Source of the DNA: an uncultured virus (IMG/VR IMGVR_UViG_3300042433_000193)
Taxonomy: Duplodnaviria > Heunggongvirae > Uroviricota > Caudoviricetes
Virus record (IMG/VR): IMGVR_UViG_3300042433_000193
Direction: 5' to 3' (one strand)
Length of the DNA: 64,000 nt
This document shows positions 127 to 58,984 of the stretch, piece after piece (positions within the stretch are counted from its first letter, which is position 1; the number at the start of each line of letters is the position of its first letter). The notes beneath the pieces were generated by a model, which made no database searches, was not told the DNA's origin, and saw nothing but the letters and a program-made list of their open reading frames with translations. A program made the translations under genes and the position numbers.

Positions 127-226
127 ACTTAACAAGTCAAGCCGATTGTTACCACTACAGTTATCCCGATCGCCTTGGTAATCCCCTAGCTTGCAATCTA
201 CTTAACAAGTCAAGCCGATTGTTACC
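127..226 (-). CRISPR. Mini-array: two identical 27-bp repeats with a 46-bp spacer, directly after tnpB
   Basis: acttaacaagtcaagccgattgttacc at 127-153 and 200-226; the tnpB stop codon (222-224) lies inside the proximal repeat. Confidence 0.7.
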
Positions 227-3406: not shown

Positions 3407-4414
3407 ATGCCTATAAAATCTTTGACAACAAGACAAGCCCGGTTCCTTAGACTGGGTATAATTCGCAAAGGGGGAGAAAAAAAAGAAAACCCTAAAAGAC
3501 CTGGCACTCTAATAAGCGGAGATGATTTAGAATATTTTCGCATTGATTCTGATATTCAAGGAATCAATGAAAAATTTACCGCTATTTACGGGAAAGAGCC
3601 TAAGCAATTAGATTGCTTATTACCTTTTCCTTATACAGACCAAGTATTTCCTTGTTGGATGGAACAGTGGAATGATAAAGATTTAAAAACCTCTGGGTTA
3701 ATGATTCGGTGCGACGAGGAAAAGCAACATATCTACCAACAAGCTGGCAAAATGATTGCCACTAATCCTATCCCGTGCAAACGACAACAAAATCCTGACG
3801 GAAGTTATTCAGGGTGTAAATGCAAGCAAGTTGGGCGATTGCAGATTGTTTTACCTAAATTAGGTGAACTAGGATACTTTGAAGTCGAAACCCATTCAAA
3901 GTGGGATATTATCGGACTAACAGAGCAACTACTAGCTATTGAAACATCGGCTGGTAGTTTGATTGGTATCCCTTTTCTATTAGAACGCGGGTCAAGAGAG
4001 CTATCTTATCCCTTACCAGACGGAAAAAGGGGACGAAAGACTTTTAGTCTTTTATCAATCCGTGTTCACCCTAGCAGAGCGTCTCAAGTTCTAGAAGTCA
4101 TTGAAACAAAAGCCTTTCAACAATTTACGGGAAATGTAGAACCTGCCAAAACTCTAACTCCTGCGTCAACGGGAAACGTAAAATTGTTCAACGCTTCGCA
4201 ATCACTGTCAGAGGATCGCAAGCAGGCTGGAATTACTTGGGCTGTAAATCAAGGATTACCTCAACCAGAAGCTTTGCAAATCGCCCAACAAGCAACCTCT
4301 GAAAAAGAATTGGCCGACCTCCTAAAAAAAGCTATAGACGCAAGGCTAAAGCCAGTAATAGAAGTTTGCAGTGAAAATATTGATCCTGGTGAACTTCTCA
4401 GTGAAGATTTTTAA
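3407..4414 (+). CDS. Phage recombination-related protein (Gp3/RDF-like family, tentative)
   Basis: LGIIRKGG...DLEYFR N-terminus, CDEE...PC...CKCKQVGRLQIVLP pattern; AGGAG RBS. Confidence 0.5.
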   Translation: MPIKSLTTRQARFLRLGIIRKGGEKKENPKRPGTLISGDDLEYFRIDSDIQGINEKFTAIYGKEPKQLDCLLPFPYTDQVFPCWMEQWNDKDLKTSGLMIRCDEEKQHIYQQAGKMIATNPIPCKRQQNPDGSYSGCKCKQVGRLQIVLPKLGELGYFEVETHSKWDIIGLTEQLLAIETSAGSLIGIPFLLERGSRELSYPLPDGKRGRKTFSLLSIRVHPSRASQVLEVIETKAFQQFTGNVEPAKTLTPASTGNVKLFNASQSLSEDRKQAGITWAVNQGLPQPEALQIAQQATSEKELADLLKKAIDARLKPVIEVCSENIDPGELLSEDF

Positions 4415-9107: not shown

Positions 9108-11996
9108 ATGGTAACACAAAGCTCTAACCGTGTCAAGATCGACCAAAACAATCCTTGCCCCCACTGTGGTAAGCCTGATTGGTGCTATATGTACACTTCC
9201 GAGGACGGCAATTTACTCTCGGTCTGCAACCGAGATCACGAACCCGCACCAGGATGGGAAAAATCTTCTAAATTAGATAGTCAGGGCAAGCCAATCTACT
9301 ATTTTAAGAAAGAAGTCAAGTTTTCTGGCTATAAAAAAGAAAAAATCCAATATTTTCTTTATCCTCCCCTTGCTAGTGGGGTGAGAATCCGCGTGTACCG
9401 GAAGGACTATCAAGAGAATGGTATCTGGAAAAAGGATATTAAGCAGCAACATTCTACAGATAATGGTGAAAATTGGAAATGGGGCATAGATGATATTGAG
9501 TACAAAGATATACCTCTTTATCGTCAAGACCGCCTAGAAAAGGCTATTAAAGAAGGGACCCAGATATTTGTAGTAGAAGGCGAGACTAAGGTAGAAAGGC
9601 TTGAGTCGTTTGGGCTGGTTGCCACTTGCAATATAGGCGGATCAAAGAAATGGCAGTCAGATCACACGAAAGCTTTGAAGGGAGCAAATCTGATTTTATG
9701 CCCTGATCGCGACAAAGGGGGAGTGGCTCACTGCCAGAAAATTTATCAAGATTTCCCCGATGCAAAATGGCTTTATGCCTATCCAGATTCTCCTTTGTGG
9801 AATCATTTACCAGATTCTCAAGGGGTAGATATTCTTAATTGGATTGAAGAAAAGAAGGTAACTCTCGATACATTGCTAACTGCGATAGTTGATAAACCAA
9901 AAGAAACAAAAGAGAGCAAAGAAAAAGAAGTCACAGTAACAGAAACGATGACTTTTCAAGACCTAATAACAGCTATTGACGGCTGTATTGGTCAGGAAGA
10001 AATCACCCGAACTCAGTGGCAAGAAAAAGTTGATCTGTGGGCAAAAGCCACTGGTAAGAAACCATCGGACATACGACATTTAATTGAAATCCGTAAAACA
10101 GAAATAGCAGAAGGGGACGCTATCAAATCAGGATTAGAAGGGTTCCTGAAAGGTAAGCATTATCAGCAGAAAGAGATTGATCTTTTTGAGATACTTCCGA
10201 AACCTTTAGCCGAAGCGATTATAAGCCGTGCCAAGACATTAAATCAACCCCCAATCAGATTACTGCATTCTTTATGGCCAATACTAGGAGCTATTTTAGG
10301 AAGTCGGTTTGCAATTAACCTCCGAACTACTGTAAGAGAAAGGGAATGCTGGAAGGAATACCCGATATTCTATTGTGCAGATTTGGGCGGGGTTTCCACT
10401 GGTAAAACTCTCACTCAAAACGAAGTTTGTCGGGTTTTGAAAAGAAAAGATTTAGCCGAGCAGAAAAGAGTTACTAAGGAACAATCCACACTAGACGATC
10501 TAAAAGCTGCGTGGCAAGAGATGTCAGCGTCAGATCGCAAGGCAAACAAAACAAACGCTGAAATCAACCCTCGTCTTTATGAGAAAGAACACTGTCAGGC
10601 GCGTCGGTGGTTTTACGATGAAGGCACTCTTGATGGCATCTTAAAAACGATGTCCTCGCAACCTTCTTGGCAAGGTGGGGTAGTCGTATATGACGAATTA
10701 TCGGGATTTTTTGAAGGATTAAATCAGTACCGATCAGGTGGTAAAGGTAACGACCGGCAACGAGACTTAAGCAACTGGAATGGCCCTATCCGAAATACTT
10801 TTGACCGCGTAAACAAAGACAATCGATACTATTTAGATGGGCAAACACTTAATAAATTAGGTGGGATACAAGTCGAGAAACTCAGGAAATATCTTGATTT
10901 ATCTAATGATGTCGATGGGGCAGTTTCTCGGTATCTTTTCTTGCTACACGAACCCCTTGATCCTCGTCCTGGTAAGCCGCCAGAAGACCCTAATTCTATC
11001 GATGAGTGTATCGAAACACTGGTCAATCAAATCAGTGGAATTAGCCTAGAAGCTGATGAAAATGGGATTATCGATCCTTATAATTGCTGGTTTAGCGAAA
11101 TCGGAGAAAGTTATGCCTGGGGTATTAAGTATCACTACGAGATACTTATTAAGAAGTATCGAGCGATTAATCCATCATTTGCTTCCTATCTAGGAAAGCA
11201 AATGAAGACTTTTTTAAGGCTTACATTAAGCATCCATCTTCTGAATTGGATATTTGATCCAGATAATACTAATCTTTACAGTATTCCTGTACAAACAGCC
11301 ATTAAAGCTGCTAAGATGACCGACTTCTATATCAGTCAATTCCTGACAATTCAAGGAGTTACGTCTCAGGACGAAAATCCAGTACAGGGAATTTTATCCG
11401 AAATCTGGGAGATCGTTAAAAGCGCAGGTCAAATCAAACCTCGGGACGTTGCCCAAAAATTCGGCGGGCGTAAAATTAATGGGGAAAAAGTAAATACTTC
11501 TATCGCCCGTACCCTACTTACTCAGCTAGAAAACGCTGGTTATGGACGACTAGAAATTAAGTCAAGGGGTATGGTGTTGCACTATCAAGAGCCAAAAGAA
11601 TTAGAAACTTTTGAGATAGAAGATTCTCTGGAATATCAATCGGAGATAAAAGAAGAAATTGTTCAAGTTGCCAGTCCCACTTTCACACACCCAAAAAATG
11701 AATCGATCCCTGATTCTGACATAGTAGAAGTTGAATCGGAGCCAGTAATCGATGAGTTATCGGCTGATGGTGTACACATTGATAGCCTTCCTGATCTTGA
11801 GAAAGAAAAGGTGCTAGTGCGGACGGCTGCACCTATAGAGATAGGAGAGCGAACTATCCCACCAAGAGCGGTCGGAAAAGTTATAGAAGCAACTTTTGAT
11901 AATCAATGGCTTTTGAGGGTAGAAACTGTTTTAAATGGGTCTGTGATCATTTTTACAATTCCATTTTCTGATTGTTACCTAGATATAAGTACCTGA
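9108..11996 (+). CDS. Primase/replication protein: Zn-binding, TOPRIM and DUF3987-like P-loop domains
   Basis: PCPHCGKPDWC; VVEGE and CPDRDKGG TOPRIM motifs; GGVSTGKT Walker A; VVYDELSG Walker B. Confidence 0.85.
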   Translation: MVTQSSNRVKIDQNNPCPHCGKPDWCYMYTSEDGNLLSVCNRDHEPAPGWEKSSKLDSQGKPIYYFKKEVKFSGYKKEKIQYFLYPPLASGVRIRVYRKDYQENGIWKKDIKQQHSTDNGENWKWGIDDIEYKDIPLYRQDRLEKAIKEGTQIFVVEGETKVERLESFGLVATCNIGGSKKWQSDHTKALKGANLILCPDRDKGGVAHCQKIYQDFPDAKWLYAYPDSPLWNHLPDSQGVDILNWIEEKKVTLDTLLTAIVDKPKETKESKEKEVTVTETMTFQDLITAIDGCIGQEEITRTQWQEKVDLWAKATGKKPSDIRHLIEIRKTEIAEGDAIKSGLEGFLKGKHYQQKEIDLFEILPKPLAEAIISRAKTLNQPPIRLLHSLWPILGAILGSRFAINLRTTVRERECWKEYPIFYCADLGGVSTGKTLTQNEVCRVLKRKDLAEQKRVTKEQSTLDDLKAAWQEMSASDRKANKTNAEINPRLYEKEHCQARRWFYDEGTLDGILKTMSSQPSWQGGVVVYDELSGFFEGLNQYRSGGKGNDRQRDLSNWNGPIRNTFDRVNKDNRYYLDGQTLNKLGGIQVEKLRKYLDLSNDVDGAVSRYLFLLHEPLDPRPGKPPEDPNSIDECIETLVNQISGISLEADENGIIDPYNCWFSEIGESYAWGIKYHYEILIKKYRAINPSFASYLGKQMKTFLRLTLSIHLLNWIFDPDNTNLYSIPVQTAIKAAKMTDFYISQFLTIQGVTSQDENPVQGILSEIWEIVKSAGQIKPRDVAQKFGGRKINGEKVNTSIARTLLTQLENAGYGRLEIKSRGMVLHYQEPKELETFEIEDSLEYQSEIKEEIVQVASPTFTHPKNESIPDSDIVEVESEPVIDELSADGVHIDSLPDLEKEKVLVRTAAPIEIGERTIPPRAVGKVIEATFDNQWLLRVETVLNGSVIIFTIPFSDCYLDIST

Positions 11997-22603: not shown

Positions 22604-22682
22604 GTGTTTCTAAAGAATTAATTTCAATTCATGAATGCCAGTAAAAACTGTAGAATAGTTTTATTGATGTTTCCCTTCTGCC

Positions 22683-23087
22683 ATGTATTATATTTCTGTT
22701 GCCAACCAAAGCCATCCCCCCTACGTCGAGAATCACGATTTAAAAATAAATTTTAACGATCTTGGCACTGTTGCGGCTATTGTAATAGCATTACTTAGTA
22801 TGTTTTCAAAAAATACTAAATCACAGGCCAAAGAACTTGATCACGAAACCTTCGAGAAAACATCAAAGAAGATGGAATCTCTTGAACAAAAACTAGAGAA
22901 AATGGTTGAGAAACTATCAACAGGAATAGAAAAACTGACTACATTAACAGCGCAACTTGACAAAGAGATAAGTCTTATTAAAGCCAAACAAGAAACTTTC
23001 TCTTCTATTTCTGATCAAATAGAAGCAATTCGCAGAAAACAGGAAGAACTTGATATACGAATCGGAATACTTGAACATAAATCTTAA
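22683..23087 (+). CDS. Membrane-anchored coiled-coil protein (holin/lysis-associated candidate)
   Basis: One TM segment LGTVAAIVIALLSMF plus coiled coil; immediately upstream of the endolysin. Confidence 0.5.
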   Translation: MYYISVANQSHPPYVENHDLKINFNDLGTVAAIVIALLSMFSKNTKSQAKELDHETFEKTSKKMESLEQKLEKMVEKLSTGIEKLTTLTAQLDKEISLIKAKQETFSSISDQIEAIRRKQEELDIRIGILEHKS

Positions 23088-25561: not shown

Positions 25562-26924
25562 TCAAATTATTCACGGTGATTGTTTTGATGTTTTAAAAAA
25601 TATTCCTGATAGTTCTATTGATTTAATCCTAACCGATCCTCCTTATGGACTTTCGTTCATGGGAAAAAATTGGGATCATGGTGTACCTGGTGTACAGTTT
25701 TGGATTGAAGCTTTACGAGTCGCTAAACCAGGAGCGCACCTATTTGCTTTTGGTGGGACTCGTACTTTTCACCGATTGGCAGTAGCAATCGAGGACGCTG
25801 GTTGGGAAATCAGAGATACCATTATGTGGGTCTATGGGTCGGGGTTTCCGAAGTCGCTTGACGTGAGCAAGGCGATTGATAAGATGGCAGTAGTTGAATG
25901 TCCTGCGTGTAATGGTATTGGTAAAAACACTGAACTTGAGTCATGGGAAGAGTGGATTAAAAAAACTCAAGACTATGGTGGGACACGCAAAGAGTGGGAA
26001 CGATTGCAAGATTTATCTATAGTTGAATGTCCTGCGTGTAATGGTACAGGAAAAGTACGCGGAGCGAATCGGGAGGTTGTGGGCGTTGAAACTCGCTACA
26101 ACGAAGCTAGCGGTATTGTTTCTGCGGGCCGCGACGAACGGACGCTGATTGAACGAAAAATCACCGTCCCCGCAACTGAAGCCGCAAAGCAATGGCAAGG
26201 CTGGGGGACTGCTCTAAAACCAGCCTTTGAACCGATTACGGTGGCTCGTAAACCTCTCACTGGCACGGTAGCTGAAAATGTCCTACAGTGGGGAACTGGG
26301 GGGATTAATATCGATGGGTGTCGTGTGGAGTGTGAAGGTAAGCCAGTTTTCATCAATGGTGTTGAACGTGATAGAAACAGATCAAGTTACGACACTGGTG
26401 GCAGTAATCGAACGGGTAAAATAACTACACAAGGCCGCTGGCCAGCCAACCTGATCCACGACGGCAGCGAGGAGGTGGTGGGGTTGTTTCCGGAGACAAA
26501 AAGCGGAAAGATGAAAGAGGGACAGATACGAACCAGCAAGCCTCTCTTTGGAAGCAAGACAGACCATATCGCTGAAACATACGGTGACTCAGGCTCCGCC
26601 GCCCGCTTTTTCTATTGCGCTAAAGCTAGTAAATCCGAACGCGGTGAAGGTAATACTCATCCTACGGTGAAACCACTGGGATTAATGAAATATCTGATCA
26701 CATTAGGATTACCGCCGGGTGGGATAGTCCTCGACCCTTTTTGTGGTTCTGGCACTACTGCTTTAGCTTGCAAAGAATTAGGTAGAAATTATATCTGTAT
26801 CGAGAAAGAATTAGAATATTATCAGATAGCTTGTAACAGACTAGACCAACCTATAGAACCTATTCCAGATGAACCGATAGAAGAACCAGTAGATAATTCT
26901 TCATTACAGTTAAAACTGTTTTAA
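25554..26924 (+). CDS. DNA amino-methyltransferase (N4-C/N6-A, beta class)
   Basis: IIHGDC, LTDPPYG, HPTVKP, VLDPFCGSGTT. Confidence 0.92.
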   Translation: MINQIIHGDCFDVLKNIPDSSIDLILTDPPYGLSFMGKNWDHGVPGVQFWIEALRVAKPGAHLFAFGGTRTFHRLAVAIEDAGWEIRDTIMWVYGSGFPKSLDVSKAIDKMAVVECPACNGIGKNTELESWEEWIKKTQDYGGTRKEWERLQDLSIVECPACNGTGKVRGANREVVGVETRYNEASGIVSAGRDERTLIERKITVPATEAAKQWQGWGTALKPAFEPITVARKPLTGTVAENVLQWGTGGINIDGCRVECEGKPVFINGVERDRNRSSYDTGGSNRTGKITTQGRWPANLIHDGSEEVVGLFPETKSGKMKEGQIRTSKPLFGSKTDHIAETYGDSGSAARFFYCAKASKSERGEGNTHPTVKPLGLMKYLITLGLPPGGIVLDPFCGSGTTALACKELGRNYICIEKELEYYQIACNRLDQPIEPIPDEPIEEPVDNSSLQLKLF

Positions 26925-46985: not shown

Positions 46986-47654
46986 TCAAGTGTATTGTAC
47001 TGATAAGTTTACTGTTTTTTGTTCCCGACCTAAACCAGTCAAATAGTTAACTATTTGGTTGTTAAAGATTTGACTATTTCTAACTACAATACAGCCCGCG
47101 CTTCCAGGTGCATTAGCGTCTCGATGTAATCCAAGTTCTGATCGAGAAAACCCTGATCCTTTGTAAGGATCAGGCGTAATATGAAAAAACATCCCCTCAA
47201 CACCTCTTGTATCTAACCAATATCCCTTAGTATTGATTTGCCAATGATTTCCTTCTGGTATTTGTCCTTTGCCTACAATTTTTTCGGCACCTCGGTATTG
47301 ATACCCAATTGAGCCACTGGTAGCCACTACTTCAATTGCTTTATCATTTCCTCGATAAAATTGCAAAATTCCTTCAATCAACTTAGGAGATCGACTTACA
47401 GGAAACTTAAAAACGGCTGTCACGGGTAAGGTATTAGGTAAATCAGATAAATCCCAATGCGGCTTGAATATCCACCAATCACCTGCGCTGTAGCTAAGTT
47501 TTACTTGAATGTGTAATCCATATTCAGATAAAACTTTATCTACAGGATAATTTCGATTTTTTTCTACAAAAATTAACTGATCTTCTTTCAAATCAGACAC
47601 TTGCTCTGGAGTTTTTTTCAGATAAGTGTTAAATATTGCTGTAATTTGCTTCAT
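46986..47654 (-). CDS. L,D-transpeptidase-like (Tlde1/DUF2778-like) cell-wall enzyme
   Basis: G.IPEG, RSELGLH.D.N.PGSAGCI His/Cys motif; N-terminal domain resembles that of the endolysin. Confidence 0.6.
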   Translation of the reverse strand: MKQITAIFNTYLKKTPEQVSDLKEDQLIFVEKNRNYPVDKVLSEYGLHIQVKLSYSAGDWWIFKPHWDLSDLPNTLPVTAVFKFPVSRSPKLIEGILQFYRGNDKAIEVVATSGSIGYQYRGAEKIVGKGQIPEGNHWQINTKGYWLDTRGVEGMFFHITPDPYKGSGFSRSELGLHRDANAPGSAGCIVVRNSQIFNNQIVNYLTGLGREQKTVNLSVQYT

Positions 47655-50016: not shown

Positions 50017-50211
50017 ATGAACCTGTACCTAGTTAAAGATTCAGTTACATCATTTGGTCTTCTTATTGCAGCAGAATCAGAAACAGAGGCTACCTGGCAT
50101 TGGTGCAATTATTTTAATAGCAATAATGACAATCCAATCGAAATAGAAGAAATTAACATTAATACTTCTGGTATCGTTTGGAAATGTGGGTGGACTACTA
50201 TTAACCCCTAA
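50017..50211 (+). CDS. Hypothetical phage protein
   Basis: MNLYLV...LLIAAESETEA motif. Confidence 0.55.
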   Translation: MNLYLVKDSVTSFGLLIAAESETEATWHWCNYFNSNNDNPIEIEEININTSGIVWKCGWTTINP

Positions 50212-53092
50212 AACCGCTCCTAAACCGATTAACAGGAGCAGAAGTAATAATCGTGCTAATAACCTTTTCATGTCCCTGAAACTCATTTTCAAGGGAATAA
50301 AATGCTCCCGATAGGCTATCTACAATGTCATTGGTCGGAGGTGTTTTCTTACTACCATCAAAACCCTGACAGGCATTTAAAAACCGAGTGTTCCACGTCC
50401 CATCTCTTAAGATAAAGATTTGTCCCCGACTAGCTGCCGTGGCTACTGGTAAAGCTCGTGTTAGCTTATCCCCTTGAGGTGCTATCGCTCTAATATCATG
50501 ACTCGGATGATTTTCCCTAATTACATTAGTAATGGTATTCTCAACAAATTTACCGCTCGATCCCCCTTCCTGCTCCCATCTTACAGCCACGGTTCTACCA
50601 TCCAATTCAGCAGTATTTTTAAGCATTAATTCCACTTCCCCGACCTTTTTCTGCTCACAGATATTATCGGCAATCACATAAGTAAATTCCTTAATCTCAG
50701 TTGAATCTGACAGTGTATTTTTAACTCTTTGGTATTTATAAACAAGAGTCCCACTGGTGTAACAGTGATAGTTTTCAGCATTTTCTTTAGCAGTTGCCGC
50801 TAAATCCCAGAACCTCACTTTACCTATTAACTTCCAATCGTCGGGTACTTTATCGAGAATCTCAAACCAAGTCCGATCAAATACCGTACCGGCTTCGTAT
50901 TTAACTTTCCAGTTACCTCTGAGAAGTCTTTCCCGCTCAATAGGATGTAAAGCGTAAAGGTTAGCCAAATAGGTAGGGTTAACCTTAATTAAAGCTGGAT
51001 TATCAAAAATCGTAGCTGGAATAAAAGTAAAACTCTTAATCAGTTTATCTGGTGTAATATTAGTATCTATATTTGATAAAAACTTTTCTCTTTTATCTTT
51101 AGGAATAAGGTCAAAAAGTTCATCTTTAAGACTAAATTTATCGATTAGTTCTTCTTTAGTATCAGCCCAGTGGATTATGTTTTCTCGTCTAACAAAATAT
51201 TTAACTATTCCCCCTCTTTCTTCAATAGCATACCCAGTCTTAGGGTCGATCCACCAAGAGATAAAACTAGCTACCCAAGAGTCAGCGTCAGGGTTACAGG
51301 TTGCTCTAACTGCGGGTTTAATGCCTGATACCGAACGGTTTCTAGAGAGAAGATAGAAAAATTGTTCTTCTGTAAAATGGGTTAATTCATCAAAACCTAT
51401 CCTTGCAATTTGTCCCCCTTGATAAACATAGACAGTTTTTTCGTATTGTAAATGTCTAAAAGATATTTTCGATCCAAATGGAAATCGCCACCCTGGAGGC
51501 TTTTCAATAAAATTACCTTTCACTGCTTGATAGATTTTTTGGCTTTCATCTATTAGTCCACCCGCTTGAGTAAATTCAGGATACGTCCGACGAAATATAA
51601 CAGCCCGATAGTCAGGATTGCTAATAAATTCTTGCCGGGCAAAATCAATTAATAGCCCAGCACTATTATGCGTAACTATATAATCATCTGTTAAATAAAG
51701 ATGATTTGGATTGCTAACAGTAATACAACGAGCGTAATCAATTTCAGTTGGTTCAATAGAAACAATTCTTTTACCCGACCAACTTGATCCCCCATTAAAT
51801 TGTCCAAGCATTTTCGCTCGTTCAACTTTACGCGGCAAACTAAAAAGTAATTCAAGGTGATTTCCCTCAACAGCCACGACGTAAGCTGTACGACCATCTA
51901 AATGCTCCCCCTTGTATCTATATTTTGGTTGTCTTTTCGTAATCTTAGCCATATAACCCAAAGAACGAACCAAAGAAGCTACCTGAATAGCCAAATCTTT
52001 ACTGGTTGTGCAATAGGAAACTTCTCTTTTTTTGTCTCCAACAGTTCCATCTGTATCAAAAAGACCTTGAGCAAACGCATAACGAAAATCAAGAGATGCC
52101 GATAAATAGCCGTCGGGAAATACTTTTTCCCACGCTCTTTTTCCTTTATATTCATTGTTGCTTATCCAAGACTTAACCCATTGAACTTTTGTCGCGTTGA
52201 CGGATAAAACTTCTAAACGGTTATCTTTTATTGGTGTTCGTGTTTTAACGGTAGCTTCTTTCCCTAAAATATCAACGAGTTTATCAGCAATAAATCTATC
52301 AGAAGTTGTTACGATAATTGAATCACTACAATAAGAACCATCGCCTATTAAACAACCGTAAAAATAGGCTCTGCCAGTATCAGACCTGTTAAGTGCCGTA
52401 AATTGCAATGGCGCGTTAACTGGAACAATAAACCGTCTTCCTTTGCTAATCTCAGTAATCAACCAATTAGTATCCCTAACCCTTGCTTTTGTAATGTAAT
52501 TAGTATTCCATCCTCTAGGTGTCAGATTCTCCTCAATTCGATTAATCCCGTTACTAGACTTCCTGCGGCTATTACGGCGAGATTCCCAAAAAGACCATAA
52601 ATGATCGCCACAGCATTCTGTACTTGTACCGTCTTCAAAAGAAACCCGATAAAATTGCTTGAATCCCTGTTCGTGAATTTGGATGATTTCTTGATACTGA
52701 CCATCAGGATTCATAATCTTATCCCCGACTTTAAGATCAGAGAAGTCGATCCATTGACCGCTCCATCCCAAGACCTTTGAATCTTTCATTTGTGATTCAT
52801 TAAAACTACTATTATATGATAATAGTCTTTTTCCTAAAAGCGCATCCGCCATAGAAAGCATTTTATCTCGAATCGCTTTTCCTGTCTTGGATGCACGCCC
52901 TGCTTTTCCACTTCCTGCGCCTCCGCCATAGAAGATTACATCAGCGTCAATTTCCCCAAATAAAGCTTGTTTTCCCTCTTGTAATTGAGGAAAAACAATT
53001 TCTTCTTTGGTGTTAACAAGTCGATATTTTTCGGTCGCTGTTTTTATCTTTGAGAGATTTTTTAGTGATAATTTACTCGCTTTCATCGTCAT
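50201..53092 (-). CDS. terL: Terminase large subunit containing an intein
   Basis: YGGGAGSGK|S Walker A, FRRTYPE, FDELTHF, ATCNPD, RFWDLAAT, DIVDSLSGA nuclease motifs. Confidence 0.92.
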   Translation of the reverse strand: MTMKASKLSLKNLSKIKTATEKYRLVNTKEEIVFPQLQEGKQALFGEIDADVIFYGGGAGSGKAGRASKTGKAIRDKMLSMADALLGKRLLSYNSSFNESQMKDSKVLGWSGQWIDFSDLKVGDKIMNPDGQYQEIIQIHEQGFKQFYRVSFEDGTSTECCGDHLWSFWESRRNSRRKSSNGINRIEENLTPRGWNTNYITKARVRDTNWLITEISKGRRFIVPVNAPLQFTALNRSDTGRAYFYGCLIGDGSYCSDSIIVTTSDRFIADKLVDILGKEATVKTRTPIKDNRLEVLSVNATKVQWVKSWISNNEYKGKRAWEKVFPDGYLSASLDFRYAFAQGLFDTDGTVGDKKREVSYCTTSKDLAIQVASLVRSLGYMAKITKRQPKYRYKGEHLDGRTAYVVAVEGNHLELLFSLPRKVERAKMLGQFNGGSSWSGKRIVSIEPTEIDYARCITVSNPNHLYLTDDYIVTHNSAGLLIDFARQEFISNPDYRAVIFRRTYPEFTQAGGLIDESQKIYQAVKGNFIEKPPGWRFPFGSKISFRHLQYEKTVYVYQGGQIARIGFDELTHFTEEQFFYLLSRNRSVSGIKPAVRATCNPDADSWVASFISWWIDPKTGYAIEERGGIVKYFVRRENIIHWADTKEELIDKFSLKDELFDLIPKDKREKFLSNIDTNITPDKLIKSFTFIPATIFDNPALIKVNPTYLANLYALHPIERERLLRGNWKVKYEAGTVFDRTWFEILDKVPDDWKLIGKVRFWDLAATAKENAENYHCYTSGTLVYKYQRVKNTLSDSTEIKEFTYVIADNICEQKKVGEVELMLKNTAELDGRTVAVRWEQEGGSSGKFVENTITNVIRENHPSHDIRAIAPQGDKLTRALPVATAASRGQIFILRDGTWNTRFLNACQGFDGSKKTPPTNDIVDSLSGAFYSLENEFQGHEKVISTIITSAPVNRFRSGFRG
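51665..52903 (-). mobile_element. Intein (413 aa) with LAGLIDADG homing endonuclease, class 3-like
   Basis: Inserted in the P-loop GK|S; starts Ala, ends VTHN|S; DHLW, ARCITV; YGCLIGDG and QGLFDTDG motifs. Confidence 0.9.
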
Positions 53093-53837
53093 CGCTTATC
53101 CTAGTGGGAACCATTACATCATCATCAAATTCTGCACTATCACGAATAATCGAGGTCAGTCCGTCATCGAGTTTCTCTATGCCAGAATGTCCTATAAGTT
53201 TTCCGTCAGGGTCAATAACAGCTAATCCGTGCTTTTGAACAATATTAATTGCGTACTCGATGGTGTCAAAACCTAAAACTTTTTCAAAGGTATCAGTCAA
53301 CGTTTTAGCCATAGTCACTGCGTCTCTATGATTCCAATTTCCGTTAGGTTCAATTGTTATGGCAATCGGTCGGCCCGATTCATCTACAGAATCTATCCGA
53401 CGGCGAGAAATCGGATAATTAGTCATCTGTTCAATCTTTTCGAGGTTTTTTAGAGTAATCTTTAGAGTCTTCTCTCGGATTTCTCGTAAAATGCTATCAG
53501 TGTAAGCTCGCTGCTCTTGAATCTTTAAAAGCCAATAGGCTTTCGCCCGCTCTTCCCATCGATAGTTTTTATGCGCTAACTGCCAGTCATCGGGGACAGT
53601 TTTAGCTCGTTTAAATTTAGTCTTCTCTATCTGTTCCCCAGAAGCTTCCCCGCAGTTACCGTAAGCTCGGTTTAAAGTGCGATAGCCTGATGGAATAGGA
53701 AGGTAAAAAATCTGAAATCTTTCAAACCAGTCAGGGGTTTCTAGTTCTTGCTGTTCCCAGATAGGATATTTGGTAAACTCGATTACCTCTTCATGAATAG
53801 AGTATGTACGCTTTCTGCCTCGATTAGTGACAACCAT
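53073..53837 (-). CDS. Terminase small subunit (putative)
   Basis: IWEQQELET...F..F..., W....RWEERAKAY motif; overlaps the terL start. Confidence 0.65.
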   Translation of the reverse strand: MVVTNRGRKRTYSIHEEVIEFTKYPIWEQQELETPDWFERFQIFYLPIPSGYRTLNRAYGNCGEASGEQIEKTKFKRAKTVPDDWQLAHKNYRWEERAKAYWLLKIQEQRAYTDSILREIREKTLKITLKNLEKIEQMTNYPISRRRIDSVDESGRPIAITIEPNGNWNHRDAVTMAKTLTDTFEKVLGFDTIEYAINIVQKHGLAVIDPDGKLIGHSGIEKLDDGLTSIIRDSAEFDDDVMVPTRISDDDESE

Positions 53838-53878: not shown

Positions 53879-54583
53879 ATGACAGATAAATTGGAAATTG
53901 AGTATCGACGGCTTTGCGACCTAAAACAACTAAAGGGTAATTCCAAAAAACACGCCACTGAAAACACAATAGCTTCAATATTGGATATGGGATTTAAAGA
54001 CCCAATTGGCTACGATCCGAGCTTAAACGGCGGAAAAGGGGGGATTACTGAGGGTCATGATCGGTGTGCCGCACTATTAGCAATTAAAAAGCGCAAAATA
54101 GATCGACCTAGAGGTATAGATATTGACAACGATGGGGAGTGGATGGTTCCTATTTTAGTAGGAGTTCACGCTAAAAATGAGGCTCAAGCTATAAAATACT
54201 CGATTATTCACAACCATTCTACGATTCACGGGGCGGGGCTTGACCTTGCTACGGAATTAAAGCTTTTTGATACTGACTTACTAATTAGCCAAGCTGAATA
54301 CCTTGATGAAGAGGGGGAGAATTTAGGAGTAATCGGCGATTTAAATTCAATCCTAGAAGCTTTAAATACTTCAGATAATTTAGATAATTCTGATAATTTT
54401 GAATCGAATATAACAGATAATTTTTCGGGAAAAAACAAAGAAATTGACATCGAGGGTATGGATGGGCAAATGATAATTAAATTAAGTTATACAGAAAATG
54501 AATACTGGCAAGTAAAAGAACAATTAAGTAAAATAGCATCGACACCCGAACAAGCAGTATGGAAGCTTTTAGGTAATGACTAA
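53879..54583 (+). CDS. ParB/Srx-like domain protein associated with a methylase
   Basis: NSKKH...IASILDMGFKDPI, ITEGHDR; probable start MTDKLE. Confidence 0.65.
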   Translation: MTDKLEIEYRRLCDLKQLKGNSKKHATENTIASILDMGFKDPIGYDPSLNGGKGGITEGHDRCAALLAIKKRKIDRPRGIDIDNDGEWMVPILVGVHAKNEAQAIKYSIIHNHSTIHGAGLDLATELKLFDTDLLISQAEYLDEEGENLGVIGDLNSILEALNTSDNLDNSDNFESNITDNFSGKNKEIDIEGMDGQMIIKLSYTENEYWQVKEQLSKIASTPEQAVWKLLGND

Positions 54584-55622
54584 ACATAAATTTGCATATA
54601 AGTGGAATTTGTCAGATGGATACCCAGCACCCGGAATTGAAAAACATGGGTTAAAAGTATTTGGTACTTTTATCTGTGGCGGTGGTTCGACTATGGGTTA
54701 CAAGTTAGCAGGTTTTGACCATTTAGGAGGTGTTGAAATAGACTCGCAGGTAGCTGATGTATATAAAGTTAACCACAATCCTAAATATTTATTTATTGAA
54801 GATATAAGAGATTTTGCTGATCGTACAAACTTTCCTAATGAACTTTATAACCTAGATATTTTAGACGGCTCACCTCCCTGCTCTTCATTTAGCATGGCAG
54901 GAAATAGAGAAAAAGACTGGGGGAAAGAAAAAGTATTTAGGGAAGGTCAGGCTAAACAGCGACTTGATGACCTTTTCTTTGATTACATACGATTAGCAAA
55001 AAAACTACAGCCAAAGGTCGTTATCGCTGAAAATGTTAAAGGAATTATTCAAGGTAATGCCAAAGCGTATGTAAAGCGAATAAAAGATGAATTTGAAAAA
55101 GCAGGGTATAAAGTACAGTTATTTCTTTTGAATGCTGCGAGCATGGGAGTACCTCAAAAACGTGAGCGAGTATTTTTTATTTGCCAAAGGAATGATTTAA
55201 ACTTTAAAAATCTAGAGTTAAGTTTTGATGAAAAATCAATTATTTATAGTGAATTTAAGTCAAAAAAATTAGGAAAAGAATTAACCAATGAAACAAAAGC
55301 TGTATGGGATAAAAGAATAAAAACAGATCAAGATTTAGCGAGTATTCACGAAAGAATTGGAAATAAAAGAAAAAGATTTCAAGCTAAATTTATTCACGAT
55401 AACCAGATTTCTCCTACTACAGTAGCAAGTGGAGATTCTGTCCCAATAAGATTTGATCATCCAAATAGAATAACAATGGATGAAGTTAAAATGATTGGTA
55501 GCTATCCGCTTGATTACAACTTTAAAAATATTAAACCAAATTATTTAATAGGAATGAGTGTGCCTCCTGTAATGACCGCACAGATAGCGCATCAGATTTA
55601 TTTACAGTGGTTTACAGAATAA
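54576..55622 (+). CDS. DNA (cytosine-5)-methyltransferase
   Basis: FICGGG, DGSPPCSSFS, ENVKG, GVPQKRERVF, GMSVPP. Confidence 0.92.
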   Translation: MTKHKFAYKWNLSDGYPAPGIEKHGLKVFGTFICGGGSTMGYKLAGFDHLGGVEIDSQVADVYKVNHNPKYLFIEDIRDFADRTNFPNELYNLDILDGSPPCSSFSMAGNREKDWGKEKVFREGQAKQRLDDLFFDYIRLAKKLQPKVVIAENVKGIIQGNAKAYVKRIKDEFEKAGYKVQLFLLNAASMGVPQKRERVFFICQRNDLNFKNLELSFDEKSIIYSEFKSKKLGKELTNETKAVWDKRIKTDQDLASIHERIGNKRKRFQAKFIHDNQISPTTVASGDSVPIRFDHPNRITMDEVKMIGSYPLDYNFKNIKPNYLIGMSVPPVMTAQIAHQIYLQWFTE

Positions 55623-55642
55623 TCAGTACAAAAGTATCCACA

Positions 55643-55664
55643 GTGACACTTGATAAACTGTCAC
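55643..55664. promoter_or_regulatory. GTGNCA-N10-TGNCAC palindromic site
   Basis: Copies at 55643-55664, 55970-55991, 56508-56529 and 2584-2605. Confidence 0.55.
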
Positions 55665-55706
55665 ACTTTGCCAACTATCTGAAAATTATCATGATATATT
55701 TAAAAT

Positions 55707-55894
55707 ATAAGCACTAAACCAAGTGCATCCATTAATTAGAGCCTCCATAAGCTACTGGGCGGATCAGTAACCGATTTGAAATAGTAGTCGGCTGGTGAGA
55801 CTGGTTAATGAGTCGTTCTAAGCTTGCTGGTGTAATTCCAGTAACCGATTTGAAATAGTAGTCGGCTGACGCACGCACTTGGTCTAGTGCTTAT
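55707..55894 (+). ncRNA. Candidate structured ncRNA: 20-bp closing stem enclosing two identical 30-nt hairpins
   Basis: 55707-55726 pairs with 55875-55894 (19/20); cagtaaccgatttgaaatagtagtcggctg at 55765-55794 and 55839-55868. Confidence 0.6.
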
Positions 55895-56059
55895 TACTTT
55901 AAATAGATTCTTAGTTATTCTAGTGACAGTAAATCACTGGAATAACTGCTTTAGATGTCCCCAAGCATTGTGACAGTTTATCAAGTGCCACACTTCGCCA
56001 ACACTTATCAAGAGGATTAATCTACATTAGAAATGTAAGCAAAACACACACCGCAGATC

Positions 56060-56521
56060 ATAAATAACCTACAATCTAAACTGGCTCGACTAAACGCTCA
56101 ACTAGCGATTACTAGAGGACGGCAAAACCAGCGTAAACTAATTGAAAAAATCTTAAAAGTAGAAGCCGTTATCGAAGCAATCGGGAAAAATACTATCGTA
56201 AGCTTTAAAAGATTGCCTAAAACTCGCGCTCTTATTTTAGAAACTCCTCGCCGCGCTTAGAGAGCATGGGTAGCGAAAATCTCACCCGAAAAAGATATTA
56301 AGCACGGTGGATTCATCAAGAAGTTTATCGAGCCTGTAAGTCGAAAATTTGAAGGTAAAAAAGGCGAAACATCTGCAACTTTTGAGATTCCTATCGATTT
56401 AAACGTTATTTATCAAGATAGCGATGGGGACTACTGGGTATTTGAAAATGTCAAAGGGAAAATTCAAAGCATCTCCTATCAAGAAGTATGCTATCGTTTT
56501 TCTCAGCGTGTCAGTGCCTAA
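56060..56521 (+). pseudogene. 153-codon gene with ATA start and in-frame TAG; N-terminus paralogous to 59109-60347
   Basis: (I)NNLQSKLARLNAQLAITRG...KILKVEAVIE versus MNTLQTKLARLESQLKITKG...EILKVESAIE; TAG at 56258-56260. Confidence 0.7.
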
Positions 56522-56569
56522 AGTGGCACAGCAAAACACCTATTTTCAAGAATTAAGTGATTTACTTAA

Positions 56570-56660
56570 GGTAGTTGCACAAAGAACTCCTATTAGGAAT
56601 TGAAACTATGAACTATAATCGTAGTTGCGTGCGCTTTATCTAATAATCCCTATTAGGGAT
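56570..56660 (+). CRISPR. Degenerate type I-D-like repeat, ~23-nt spacer, truncated repeat
   Basis: ...ctcctattaggaATTGAAAC then ...taataatccctattagggat; resembles the CCCTATTAGGGATTGAAAC end of cyanobacterial I-D repeats. Confidence 0.6.
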
Positions 56661-56694
56661 ACCCCGAAGCTTAAGTAGGGGAAAATTTGAAAAA

Positions 56695-57225
56695 ATGAAA
56701 GCTCTGCTACTCGATCTTGATGGCACGATCCGCCGGCCTACTAGCGGAAAATTCATCGAATATCCAAACGATCAAGAACCAATCGAAGGGGCGATAAAAG
56801 CTATAGAAATTTACCATCAAGAGAGATGGACGATGATAGGAATCACCAATCAGGGCGGAGTAGCCGCCGGCTATAAATCCTTAAAAAGCGCAATCGAAGA
56901 ACAGCAAAAAACTTTAGAAATATTTCCCCTACTTTCTTATATCTACTTTTGCCCTGATTTCGAGGGGAATTTGTGCTATGGCGTAAGTCGAGAAAATATA
57001 GATTTAATCCATGTAATTTGCAAAGAATTTTTAGGCCAATTTAGAAAGCCTAATTGTGGTATGATTTCCGCATCTTTAAAATCCTTTGACAAAGAACCTA
57101 CCGATATTTTAATGGTAGGAGATCGAGAAGAAGATAAATTAGCGGCAAAAAATGCAGGAATCAACTTTTTAGACGCTCATGTTTGGAGTGTATATTCCCT
57201 TGATTTAACAAAGAATACCAGATGA
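56695..57225 (+). CDS. HAD-IIIA phosphatase (GmhB/polynucleotide 3'-phosphatase-like)
   Basis: LDLDGT, ITNQGG, RKPNCGM, MVGDREED. Confidence 0.85.
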   Translation: MKALLLDLDGTIRRPTSGKFIEYPNDQEPIEGAIKAIEIYHQERWTMIGITNQGGVAAGYKSLKSAIEEQQKTLEIFPLLSYIYFCPDFEGNLCYGVSRENIDLIHVICKEFLGQFRKPNCGMISASLKSFDKEPTDILMVGDREEDKLAAKNAGINFLDAHVWSVYSLDLTKNTR

Positions 57226-57506
57226 TTGATGTTTTCAAAAATAAGATTAGAAAAACAAAAGTGATAACACCTAGACAAGCCTACATCTATCTAGTGTGGG
57301 CAAAAAACAATAATCTTGACCCAGTGCCTGTAACTTCCCGTCATCGGAACTATCGCTTTAGAGTGGCATCAACTACAGCAGAATTAGGAATAGGTAAAGA
57401 ACGAATTAGACAAGTTTTAGCTAAAATTCTTAAACTACTATCAAAAGGAACCCAAATTGAGGAGGCGACCCAAATAATATTAAGAGAATACGAAAAATTC
57501 AACTAA
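57222..57506 (+). CDS. Sigma70 region-4-like HTH protein
   Basis: AELGIGKERIRQVLAKILK.L. Confidence 0.55.
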   Translation: MIDVFKNKIRKTKVITPRQAYIYLVWAKNNNLDPVPVTSRHRNYRFRVASTTAELGIGKERIRQVLAKILKLLSKGTQIEEATQIILREYEKFN

Positions 57507-57508
57507 CT

Positions 57509-57538
57509 AAAAACCCGTCAATTAATTGACGGGTTTTT
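57509..57538. terminator. Intrinsic terminator
   Basis: aaaaacccgtcaattaattgacgggttttt. Confidence 0.75.
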
Positions 57539-57779
57539 AGTTAATATTGTTAACAGATTGGTAGCAGTGTATTAACAGCGAAAAGTATTGATATATATAC
57601 GTTTTATTAGTTTGTTGCTACTGTTAATAGGTTTCCCGATTCTCGTTTTTTTTGTGTCCAGATTCCCTAATATAGAAAATTCTATATTAGGGAATAATTG
57701 ATTATTTAATGTAGTACAATATCAATATGCCCTCGTTGACGCGAGGGACTAACCAAGTCAACCTACTGTAGAGGCTAAC

Positions 57780-58484
57780 ATGGCTGATCTAATTTTACAA
57801 CGTTTTGATCACGACGGCATCGAGCTAATTATCGACACTCAGACCGGTGAAAGCTTTGCCTCAATCAAAGGATATGCTCGTATGTCTGGGAAAAGCCACA
57901 ACGCTATCACTATGCGATTAAACCGGCTATCTAAAGAAGATAGCAAGGGGGTAACTTCTGAATCTCCAAATCACCCTCAAATTCAAACAGGGAGCGGGTT
58001 ACAAGGGGGTAACACAATGGGGTTAGGATTAGGATTGCTAAAACAGGCTCAAATTCAAACAGAGGGCGGGTTGCAAGGGGTTTATCTAATCCCAGAAGAC
58101 CTAATCTGTAAGTGGTTGCCAAAGGATAATCCTGAGTTAGCCTCTCAAGTGCTTAAGCTAGGAGTCCGATTATTCCTTCACACATTAGCTGGTTTTCGCG
58201 TCAAGAGCGAGGCAATTAAAGAGGTAAGACAACTTGAGAGCCAAATCGTCAAACTAAGCGAAGAGAAGCAAATACTAGAGGAGTTGATCGAAACTCAAAA
58301 GATTATGATCGCTGACTTTAGCAGTAAAAACTCGATGCTTGACTATAAGCGGCTAGTGATCGAAGAATTGCACGCTGAAAAAGAGCGCGATATAGCTAAA
58401 TTTAACTTACTCGAAACCGAACGAGAAAAAGCACGGGGATGGCGAGGCGGTCGAATGCTTACAAGAAACGATAAAAAACGGTAA
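57780..58484 (+). CDS. Antirepressor-like DNA-binding protein with coiled-coil tail (tentative)
   Basis: Paralog of 45809-46263; followed by terminator hairpin 58503-58530. Confidence 0.55.
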   Translation: MADLILQRFDHDGIELIIDTQTGESFASIKGYARMSGKSHNAITMRLNRLSKEDSKGVTSESPNHPQIQTGSGLQGGNTMGLGLGLLKQAQIQTEGGLQGVYLIPEDLICKWLPKDNPELASQVLKLGVRLFLHTLAGFRVKSEAIKEVRQLESQIVKLSEEKQILEELIETQKIMIADFSSKNSMLDYKRLVIEELHAEKERDIAKFNLLETEREKARGWRGGRMLTRNDKKR

Positions 58485-58553
58485 AAATACCTAAACCCAT
58501 ATAAACCCCCTATGGACTCATAGGGGGTTTATAGTTTGTTGGTTTGTAAATAG

Positions 58554-58984
58554 ATTGTAGATAAGGTGATCGACAATAAAAAGCATTGATATATATAGGT
58601 TCTAGACTTTGTTAGTATTGTTACTCTATTTCCCCGTGTCAGAATTTTTTATCCTTTTCTTATTGTCCAGTTTGTTTGTCTCTCTTTATTTTTTTCTCTC
58701 TGTATAGAGTGTCGACAAGATAAACAAACCTCGAAATCTATACTCTGCAAGGATTTCGATTGTTAATAACCTTATCTACAATCTATCTACAGACTAACAG
58801 ACTTATTGCTGACTTTGGTTTTTTTTTCTATTGCTAAACTTAGTTATCTCCCGCAGTCTTTTTATTGTCCAGCCTGGTATATTTTCTTATCTTTTCTTTT
58901 TCCCTATAAACCATTGACAACGTTAACAAAGCCTACAACCTTTGCGGAGTAAAGGTTTTGATTGTCGATCACTTTATTAACAAT
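58554..58984. repeat. ~70-bp dispersed element cluster (locus 4; a degenerate copy also at about 57556-57627)
   Basis: Forward 58554-58623, reverse 58712-58782 and 58915-58984. Confidence 0.75.

Follow-up and report, generated by a model that had tools for sequence, protein, structure and literature searches.

A stretch of 64,000 nucleotides (nt) from an uncultured virus of the Caudoviricetes (IMG/VR IMGVR_UViG_3300042433_000193), hereafter the window, carries a small intergenic element that copies the 3′ part of a 37-nt CRISPR repeat, GTTCCAATTAATCTTAAACCCTATTAGGGATTGAAAC. The element lies on the + strand at 56574–56681, within the gap between two genes (56522–56694), and consists of two repeat-like units and a pseudo-spacer. 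We are highly confident that it is CRISPR-derived and maintained. Its most probable function, held here at a probability of roughly 45%, is that of a CRISPR RNA (crRNA)-like decoy of the kind represented by the RNA anti-CRISPRs termed Racr and Cracr, which would be processed by Cas6 and act against the host type I-D system. The preliminary description of the site had offered an RNA anti-CRISPR or a guide; a crRNA-like role of the Racr type is retained as the most likely kind, while the proposed promoter guide found no support in the target searches described below.

The first unit, psiR1 (pseudo-repeat 1; 56574–56606), opens with GTTGCA and carries a 4-bp hairpin, TCCTATTAGGA (56588–56598), followed by an intact 8-nt 5′ handle, ATTGAAAC (56599–56606). 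The pseudo-spacer, psiS (56607–56628), is 22 nt long, is of the type termed allele A, and is delimited by the conserved repeat parts on either side in an alignment of 21 variants. In the second unit, psiR2 (pseudo-repeat 2; 56629–56660), a segment running from GTGCG to TAATAAT precedes the hairpin CCCTATTAGGG (56648–56658) and a final AT; here the handle lacks its TGAAAC portion, in place of which ACCCCG is found. The last component is a further hairpin, hp2 (56662–56681), formed by CCCC, a 12-nt loop and GGGG, followed by an A-run, 13 nt before the ATG of the downstream gene. This hairpin is folded in the minimum-free-energy structure of the region and is present wherever psiR2 is, including in copies that lack psiR1. 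Since hp2 has no T-run, it is not an intrinsic terminator, and the terminator scan lists none there. Together, the psiR2 hairpin and hp2 form a portable 42-nt module (56644–56685, + strand, like all of these parts) that marks cassette borders. The preliminary description had placed here a hairpin, a handle ending at 56606 and a 23-nt spacer, tatgaactataatcgtagttgcg (56607–56629), then a second repeat, AATCCCTATTAGGGAT (56645–56660), without the TGAAAC end, and a cccc/gggg hairpin; all of these are present. The intergenic placement is also genuine, as a 59-amino acid (aa) open reading frame (ORF) that reaches into the gap overlaps, out of frame, a gene that is intact in relatives. The word "solitary" does not apply: there are two repeat-like units at the site, and the element is part of a family.

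From sequence statistics, a chance look-alike is unlikely. The 18-mer CCTATTAGGRATTGAAAC of psiR1 occurs a single time in the 64 kb, with 0 mismatches, against 0.16 occurrences expected with three mismatches allowed, and the CCCC/GGGG hairpin word of hp2 is unique in the window (0 expected). The two hairpin regions constitute a 19-nt direct repeat, 60 nt apart. In an Rfam search of 56300–56900, the top two matches were both to CRISPR-DR5, with psiR1 scoring 19.7 bits and psiR2 18.8 bits (E 2.7 and 4.2). As the family has a gathering score of 40, neither value suffices to assign the units to CRISPR-DR5 from Rfam alone. The psiR1 alignment to this model is end to end (positions 1–37, with a 4-nt gap), and psiR2 aligns to positions 17–31. 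The hairpin-then-handle order of the Microcystis type I-D repeat is reproduced by psiR1, whereas psiR2 supplies the hairpin only. No array is found elsewhere in the window, and the element is virus-borne, outside an array and away from cas genes. It is itself not a regular array of identical repeats: its two unlike units are 60 nt apart, compared with a period of 70–78 nt in host arrays. Across the 21 aligned variants, the layout is that of a degenerate repeat, a short pseudo-spacer and a degenerate repeat, as in Cracr, CreR and CreA.

The likeness to the host repeat is strongest in psiR1. Over its last 19 nt, 17 are equal to the Microcystis repeat, and the two differences turn the outer C-G pair of the hairpin into T-A; in psiR2, 13–16 nt are alike. 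A natural array with the 18-mer of psiR1 is also known (L069). When species-representative genomes were scanned with the 3′ 24 nt of the repeat, 19 loci were recovered, 17 of them titled Microcystis. In a complete Microcystis genome the array is found downstream of csc2, csc1, cas3′, a Uma2-family ORF, cas6, cas4 and cas1d (cas names by NCBIfam). The first ORF of that operon encodes 920 aa and is labelled cas10d from its position and size, a partial copy being unnamed by NCBIfam. This alignment to a Microcystis repeat that adjoins a type I-D operon bears out the earlier designation of the repeat as type I-D-like. Another genome, G001, carries both the repeat and phage-like contigs. A Cas10d family model was unmatched in 41 genus-mates of G001 and equally in control genomes; this result is uninformative, and the host was therefore taken from the named Microcystis records instead.

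Targeting of the phage by these arrays is heavy. Of the 608 spacers extracted from Microcystis I-D-type arrays, 50 have matches in the window that span 80% or more of the spacer, eight of them perfect. Examples of these sites are 3744–3779, 22661–22695, 26823–26856, 46987–47026, 53208–53240, 53989–54023, 58251–58285 and 58731–58767. The protospacer-adjacent motif (PAM) of type I-D is GTH, with which the 5′ flanks of 36 of the 50 matching spacers agree (GTT in 19, GTC in 15 and GTA in 2). Combined with the Microcystis repeat loci, the matches with GTH flanks indicate that the host is Microcystis and that the phage is under heavy type I-D targeting. A flank of ATC or ATT, present at five of the 50 matches, could stem from PAM escape changes or from imprecisely drawn spacer borders.

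Relatives of the element were gathered by exact-word scans of IMG/VR, with the contig tally made by hand. The word spanning psiR2 and hp2 occurs at 27 places on 26 contigs. The psiR1 word occurs at 30 loci, which include two unrelated sequences and one real 12-repeat array, and the allele-A psiS word at 20 loci, all inside the element; one more allele-B variant was recovered as well. In total, the full element is present in 36 IMG/VR contigs, 31 with allele A and five with allele B; a metagenome scan yielded nine more contigs, one with a third allele, C, and some of which are probably the same as IMG/VR contigs. A copy in G001 (C205) is 89% identical and sits between unrelated genes. The three psiS alleles are unrelated to one another. 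Across the 21 distinct variants that were aligned, psiR1 and psiR2 hardly vary, and the middle is the sole part that is unalignable between alleles. Both hairpins remain paired in all 21: the changes fall in the loop or are C-to-T substitutions that keep a G-U pair. Both stems are likewise kept in a distant allele-B copy (L150), and the handle is invariant in allele A.

The pattern of divergence within the element is graded. As a mean pairwise value over 13 allele-A haplotypes with an intact upstream gene tail, divergence is 0.8% in the psiR1 hairpin and handle, 2.3% in the psiR2 hairpin, 4.0% in the psiR1 5′ flank, 6.8% in psiS and 7.4% in the first 8 nt of hp2, relative to 20.2% at codon position 3 and 3.9% at codon positions 1 and 2 of the upstream gene. 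The hairpin with its 8-nt handle is the most constrained part of the element. Class 1 systems require the handle when an RNA is loaded into Cas5/Cas7 effector complexes, beyond any part that it plays in Cas6 cutting. Its constraint is therefore the main ground for preferring an RNA that feeds into the effector pathway to a simple cleavage site. Nine of the haplotypes have a spacer of equal length between the upstream stop codon and psiR1, and in these the values are 10.6% for that spacer, 3.8% for psiS and 19.3% for codon position 3. The remaining four of the 13 have indels in the stop-to-psiR1 spacer, and none of the 13 has an indel in psiS. Allele-A psiS also contains an internal hairpin, paired in 91% of cells and with one wobble-compatible change; by eye, its counterpart is a short AAAUU/AAUUU pairing in allele B, and there is none in allele C.

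The element appears to descend from phage-borne arrays. Contig L028 holds a five-repeat phage array in which the last repeat has a complete 5′ part of the host type; this repeat breaks off after GGGAT, and the same hp2 hairpin (CCCC/GGGG) and an ATG follow. To judge from its sequence, this contig shows an intermediate form between array and element. Four further relatives (G002, G063, G061 and G060) carry arrays of ~2 to 9 repeats of a sister repeat without cas genes. Next to such arrays, the element resembles a final stage of reduction, minimal and degenerate. Handle and hairpin are 41 nt apart in the window and 36–41 nt apart across alleles, as compared with ~52–55 nt in host arrays, so the predicted product would be ~12–17 nt shorter than the normal intermediate. 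As a separate observation, made at L173 505–560 (MaMV-CH01), L002 ~1400–1520, L169 and L170, a conserved ~100-aa gene whose product starts with MNQTQLDKK is always found directly behind the last (degenerate) repeat: 13 nt behind a single repeat in MaMV-CH01, and behind the arrays in G002, G060 and G061. Its product may be a repeat-associated factor or an anti-CRISPR candidate. Another degenerate mini-array was seen in Microcystis contig L116 (6470–6570, minus strand), where TTCCTATCAGGGATTGAAAA is followed by 24 nt, a shortened repeat with the full handle, ~20 nt and a terminator-like hairpin. The same contig carries a ParA-like gene and a 962-aa primase/helicase-like gene that is 30% identical to window 9108–11996.

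The proposal of a decoy starts from what is observed, namely the origin, architecture and conservation pattern of the element, its link to the host and the CRISPR pressure on the phage; the steps that we infer are transcription, Cas6 cutting, effector loading and inhibition. The element would be co-transcribed with the gene behind it, and host Cas6 would cleave each of the two hairpins at its 3′ base, behind 56598 and 56658, respectively. These cuts would release a ~60-nt crRNA-like RNA with an authentic 5′ handle, AUUGAAAC, a 41-nt shortened guide region and a 3′ hairpin. The released RNA would occupy Cas6 and seed short, non-productive Cas5d/Cas7d assemblies, possibly likewise in type III complexes that share the tag, and in competing with the many phage-targeting host crRNAs it would act as an RNA anti-CRISPR. 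With psiR2 lacking a handle and being followed by a stable hairpin, the freed downstream mRNA would not be taken for a crRNA and would keep a structured 5′ end.

Several points weigh against this proposal. No sigma-70-like promoter is predicted on the + strand between 55707 and 56694, so expression would depend on read-through. Relatives carry true arrays with normal spacers and no cas genes, and thus rely on a working host Cas system, a situation that fits a guide better than a blanket inhibitor. The lower divergence of psiS compared with the adjacent intergenic DNA (3.8% versus 10.6%), together with its freedom from indels, hints at a sequence-specific constraint that a pure decoy does not need. 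Low divergence of the element could, in part, stem from recent spread by recombination rather than from selection. The element is also absent from the table of solitary repeat units (SRUs) in the Racr study (supplementary file 3 of PMC10651486), though this table lists other I-D SRUs from IMG/VR3. Finally, Cas6 processing and the loss of interference are predictions drawn from sequence comparison.

With respect to expression, an internal promoter assembled from TTGAAA and TATAAT was rejected: these two motifs are only 8 nt apart, and the scan finds no + strand site after 55706. Contigs from all four of the freshwater RNA libraries considered (four studies) cover relatives of the region with 85–99% likeness, and one of these contigs bridges 56407–56721. 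As these libraries are assembled contigs, in which RNA ends are unreadable, DNA carry-over is possible and gaps in cover at ~56575–56618 (X4) are not evidence, they lend weak support to read-through transcription of the element.

An unlikely reading, but the best placed among the alternatives to a decoy, is a regulatory guide like Cracr or CreR, in which the pseudo-spacer would send host Cascade, without cleavage, to silence a cas, defense or phage promoter. The shortened distance between handle and hairpin is like that of the short CreA, CreR and Cracr spacers (10.1101/2024.10.29.618823), and host I-D mini-arrays with predicted cas10d-promoter targets have been reported (10.1101/2023.03.03.530964). 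In addition, psiS is better conserved than the adjacent intergenic DNA, its three alleles could fit three host variants, and in the complete Microcystis genome the sole non-array match to the hairpin-plus-two-bases pattern (GGGA, then A or T) is in the leader of cas10d. The search for a target, which covered 17 Microcystis species representatives and three promoter variants, goes against such a guide. For alleles A, B and C, GTH-flanked seeds extend to 6 nt at most in three I-D cas promoter regions, a length reached by 34 of 300 shuffles; the preliminary suggestion of comparing the spacer with host cas promoters next to a I-D PAM thus returned only what is within chance. Across 20 kb of one I-D locus, allele A found neither a run of at least 8 nt nor a 16/22 match, and seeds of 9–11 nt elsewhere in a genome are indistinguishable from chance. 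Near-matches with up to three mismatches in the 17 genomes are not above a reversed control (5 versus 44 for allele A, 4 versus 5 for B and 0 versus 0 for C). Within the window itself, the alleles have no match with up to three mismatches, and there is no GTH plus 7-nt seed for allele A or C. A Cracr is expected to have at least 9–10 PAM-proximal matches, either with the promoter of cas or toxin genes or with a CreR/CreA spacer; such matches were found neither in the three promoters nor in the one locus. The same site had been suggested to guide Cascade to a promoter by virtue of a TATAAT in the spacer. This motif is unconserved, occurring in four of 18 distinct allele-A variants (TATAGT in the other 14), and alleles B and C are unrelated in sequence, which leaves that idea unsupported.

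Less probable again is that the psiR2 hairpin and hp2 constitute a 5′-untranslated region (UTR) cleavage and stability module and a recombination junction, with the repeat-spacer part being secondary. The 42-nt module precedes at least seven unrelated genes, and in three of its 27 occurrences it is found alone before genes, without psiR1, in one case ~35 nt behind a TTGACA-17-TAATCT promoter. L043 carries, in sequence, the element, a 78-aa gene, a further module and the HAD gene, so that a gene cassette is bracketed by two modules; by comparison, the arrangement in the window looks like a deletion product between two modules of the L043 type. Several RNA-library contigs break at 56644/56645 and at 56685, and one (X8 record 19) matches 56644–56685 only, with flanks that differ on both sides. 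From the varied genes behind the module and the contig breaks at its edges, the module is a cassette border; this role may be functional or may simply result from recombination where sequence is conserved. The MaMV-CH01 repeat 13 nt before a conserved gene, which follows arrays in G002, G060 and G061, would fit the same arrangement, as would the host I-D locus homology that breaks exactly at a leader hairpin. Such a cassette would leave unexplained the perfect 8-nt handle of psiR1, the most conserved part, and the presence of psiR1 and a pseudo-spacer in 24 of the 27 modules. Furthermore, Cas6-dependent mRNA ends are only predicted, and borders at repeats can arise from homologous recombination at any conserved sequence.

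A related reading, somewhat more doubtful, is a Cas6-operated switch. The genes behind the module would be matured, stabilized or made translatable only after a Cas6 cut, and the hairpins together with the psiR1 RNA would drain Cas6 from the leader hairpin of cas10d. If such a switch exists, the phage would sense and exploit the host type I-D machinery and upset its feedback control. This reading would tie together the diversity of genes behind the module, the match in the cas10d leader and the up-regulation of cas10d reported during infection (PMC5780444). In the complete Microcystis genome, the leader hairpin CCCTATTAGGGAA (L118 7013–7060, G043:C1:4333011) lies ~165 nt ahead of the start codon, with a second hairpin behind it; the divergent gene upstream encodes WYL and WCX domains. 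A leader of this type is present in three of the 17 species representatives (L118, L119 and L120). In two of the three, homology stops exactly at the hairpin, and a different, cas3′-first locus follows. A search for the Cas10d protein in the 17 Microcystis genomes returned the query's own genome only, though two others hold the leader element. A derivation of the psiR2 flank from the host cas10d leader flank was rejected: the shared GTGCG..TTATC has p ~0.30 in 5000 shuffles, and the downstream flanks of psiR2 and the leader compare with p ~0.55.

It is improbable that the element is a true one-spacer mini-array that arms the host type I-D system against a competing phage or plasmid. Relatives do have real arrays without cas genes, virus-borne mini-arrays against related viruses are documented (PMC6858448), and the spacer alleles differ by lineage. 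The collection scans behind the search for a protospacer used exact words, which diverged targets would escape. With an 18-nt word of allele A, 20 of 20 matches in IMG/VR are inside the element; with a 19-nt word of allele C there is no match in IMG/VR; and with a 17-nt word of allele B, 23 of 28 IMG/VR matches are unrelated coincidences that do not extend past the word, the rest being the element. In 50,697 phage records, only chance matches of 19–34 nt at E = 4 were found. The guide region is also 12–17 nt shorter than in host arrays. The element is not a normal mini-array, having neither a spacer of normal length nor, among IMG/VR, the phage records and the 17 Microcystis genomes, a protospacer found in another mobile element. 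Equally improbable is that the element is a decaying remnant of an array once carried by a phage, without present function and maintained through linkage and recent recombination: the 5′ halves of both repeats are degenerate, copies in L055 and L084 end after psiS and are fused into a gene, G002 lacks the whole segment 55927–57255, and the neighboring gene in the window is a pseudogene, but decay is at odds with the 25-fold gap between hairpin-plus-handle and synonymous divergence, the graded pattern inside the element, the stems intact in 21 of 21 variants, and the exactly one copy retained in each of five near-complete relatives (64–90 kb) despite gene turnover on the 3′ side.

The decoy is best understood by comparison with known systems. 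Racrs and Cracrs have been experimentally shown for other subtypes (PMC10651486; 10.1101/2024.10.29.618823). Like a Racr (Camara-Wilpert et al. 2023, PMC10651486), the element is a phage-encoded mimic of the host-repeat hairpin, intergenic and with no cas genes nearby, and binding of Cas6 and Cas7, expected for Racrs, is predicted for it from its sequence. Type I-D candidates from IMG/VR3 are listed in the SRU table of that paper, which tested I-C, I-E, I-F and V-A; no I-D Racr is among those tested in the available text (PMC10651486). The element differs from a Racr in that it has two repeat-like units and a pseudo-spacer rather than one solitary unit, in that its likeness to the host is limited to the 3′ 19 nt of psiR1 and the psiR2 hairpin, and in that it has no predicted promoter of its own and is located in the 5′ UTR of a gene. 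With Cracr (Liu et al., 10.1101/2024.10.29.618823) and CreR/CreA, it shares the succession of degenerate repeat, short pseudo-spacer and degenerate repeat, and Cracrs are also phage-borne; as in those systems, the shortened guide region is expected to yield a smaller, non-cleaving complex. Cracrs are, however, defined by at least nine PAM-proximal matches to a CreA/CreR spacer or a cas promoter (10.1101/2024.10.29.618823), and none was found for the element. That preprint reports V-A, I-F, I-E, I-C and I-B, and its main text contains no mention of I-D, cyanobacter* or Microcystis (10.1101/2024.10.29.618823).

Two other groups of systems are similar in part. The host I-D mini-arrays (Shmakov et al., 10.1101/2023.03.03.530964) are standalone repeat units of the same subtype, placed near cas10d beside hot spots of gene shuffling, with predicted cas10d-promoter targets. 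They are host-encoded and inside cas loci, whereas the element is phage-borne and has no predicted target. The cas-less arrays of viruses (cyanophage N-1, PMC4916379; archaeal viruses, PMC6858448) resemble it in their host-type repeats and reliance on host Cas, and Nostoc phage N1 has a 19-nt exact match to psiR2. In contrast to these arrays, the element is a single unit with a shortened guide and a handle-less terminal repeat, and no protospacer was found for it. The module resembles the promoter-early stem-loop (PeSL) cassettes of T4-type phages, in which a short, conserved stem-loop is found at the borders of shuffled cassettes; unlike the module, PeSLs carry a promoter and are not known to descend from CRISPR repeats. 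As judged from its sequence, the element would work most like a Racr or Cracr while falling outside the strict definition of both, because it is neither solitary nor near-full as a repeat, has no predicted promoter of its own and shows no detectable cas-promoter or CreR match. What appears to be new is that a cyanophage carries, in a 5′ UTR, a single-unit pseudo-array of type I-D whose terminal repeat is handle-less and is accompanied by a putative insulating hairpin. An experimentally shown type I-D anti-CRISPR was not found in the available text of the Racr and Cracr literature (PMC10651486; 10.1101/2024.10.29.618823).

A simpler, promoter-driven version of the host repeat is present in the cultured Microcystis phage Ma-LMM01. 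At NC_008562.1 35,700–35,970, a TTGACA-17-TATAAT promoter precedes the host repeat in three copies, all of them changed in the last base and separated by spacers of 36 and 33 nt; the record labels this region as a "56 bp repeat unit" and the hypothetical proteins gp049 and gp050. During infection, the repeat region reaches a log2 FPKM (fragments per kilobase per million) of ~9 at 3 and 6 h (Table S3, PMC5780444). In the same study, cas10d is reported as the only up-regulated defense gene, and a host with matching spacers is still lysed (PMC5780444). In one search of the Ma-LMM01 literature, no paper was found that also uses mini-array or solitary-repeat terms. Microcystis forms toxic blooms, and its type I-D arrays target this phage group heavily; a repeat-derived RNA countermeasure, if true, would help to explain infection of hosts with matching spacers, as reported for Ma-LMM01. 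Ma-LMM01 and its host offer a culturable system for RNA mimicry of type I-D repeats. The handle-less terminal repeat and the proposed insulating hairpin would also represent a compact natural design for placing a crRNA-like unit ahead of a protein-coding gene.

The genes of the window identify it as a cyanophage: Pfam matches include NblA, both subunits of ribonucleotide reductase, a terminase with a LAGLIDADG insert and baseplate parts, as well as DNA methylases and a TnpB-like ORF. Cylindrospermopsis phage Cr-LKS4 has a portal protein with 33% identity to the one in the window, and a megablast of 55000–58500 against phage records returned no match. Among 72 ORFs scanned with Pfam there are no cas genes, in agreement with the preliminary description. 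The only cas-related item is the TnpB-like ORF (222–1898, minus strand; 558 aa), which has OrfB_IS605 and Cas12f1-like TNB domains. The gene downstream of the element (56695–57225, + strand) encodes a 176-aa HAD-family protein that is polynucleotide-kinase-3′-phosphatase-like (Pfam Hydrolase_like, HAD_2 and PNK3P) and 45% identical to the annotated polynucleotide kinase/phosphatase of Aphanizomenon phage vB_AphaS-CL131. The upstream gene (56060–56521, + strand) is a remnant, a pseudogene of a 155-aa protein of unassigned function that is intact in L043 (1647–2114, minus strand) and adjoins the element in most contigs. In the window, its start codon is ATA (56060) and codon 67 is TAG (56258–56260), which is TGG in relatives; position 56259 is G in contigs of all four RNA libraries. 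The intact protein has no match in Pfam or PHROG. The 59-aa ORF in this region (56424–56603) was rejected as a real gene that would explain psiR1: it overlaps the tail of the 155-aa gene out of frame, and in relatives its frame is broken by 2- and 28-nt indels with psiR1 left intact.

Minor features were noted elsewhere in the window and its relatives. Two copies of a ~26–35-nt motif, GTAACAATCGGCTTGACTTGTTAAGT, are found behind the TnpB-like ORF (225–190 and 152–127, minus strand). A motif pair of this type precedes a CRISPR repeat in G060, whereas the window has the motifs and no array at that site; in G002 and G063, an array of 7–9 repeats is found behind a TnpB-like gene. Homing-endonuclease domains (LAGLIDADG and Hom_end) lie within the large terminase gene (50201–53092, minus strand) and suggest that it harbors an intein or an endonuclease insertion. 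The stretch 55644–56012 is gene-poor and contains a duplicated 30-nt segment (55765–55794 and 55839–55868), inverted copies GTGACA..TTGATAAAC/GTTTATCAAG beside CACTT(T/C)GCCAAC motifs, and terminator-like hairpins at 55711–55726 and 55875–55890; relatives in RNA-library contigs skip 55923–55969. This stretch could represent either the insertion of a small element or a group of regulatory repeats. Lastly, the short motif (T/A)CAGT(T/A)ATCAGT occurs in runs in the intergenic DNA of L169, L043 (~1200–1240) and L015 (~1210–1235), often just upstream of repeat units or modules.

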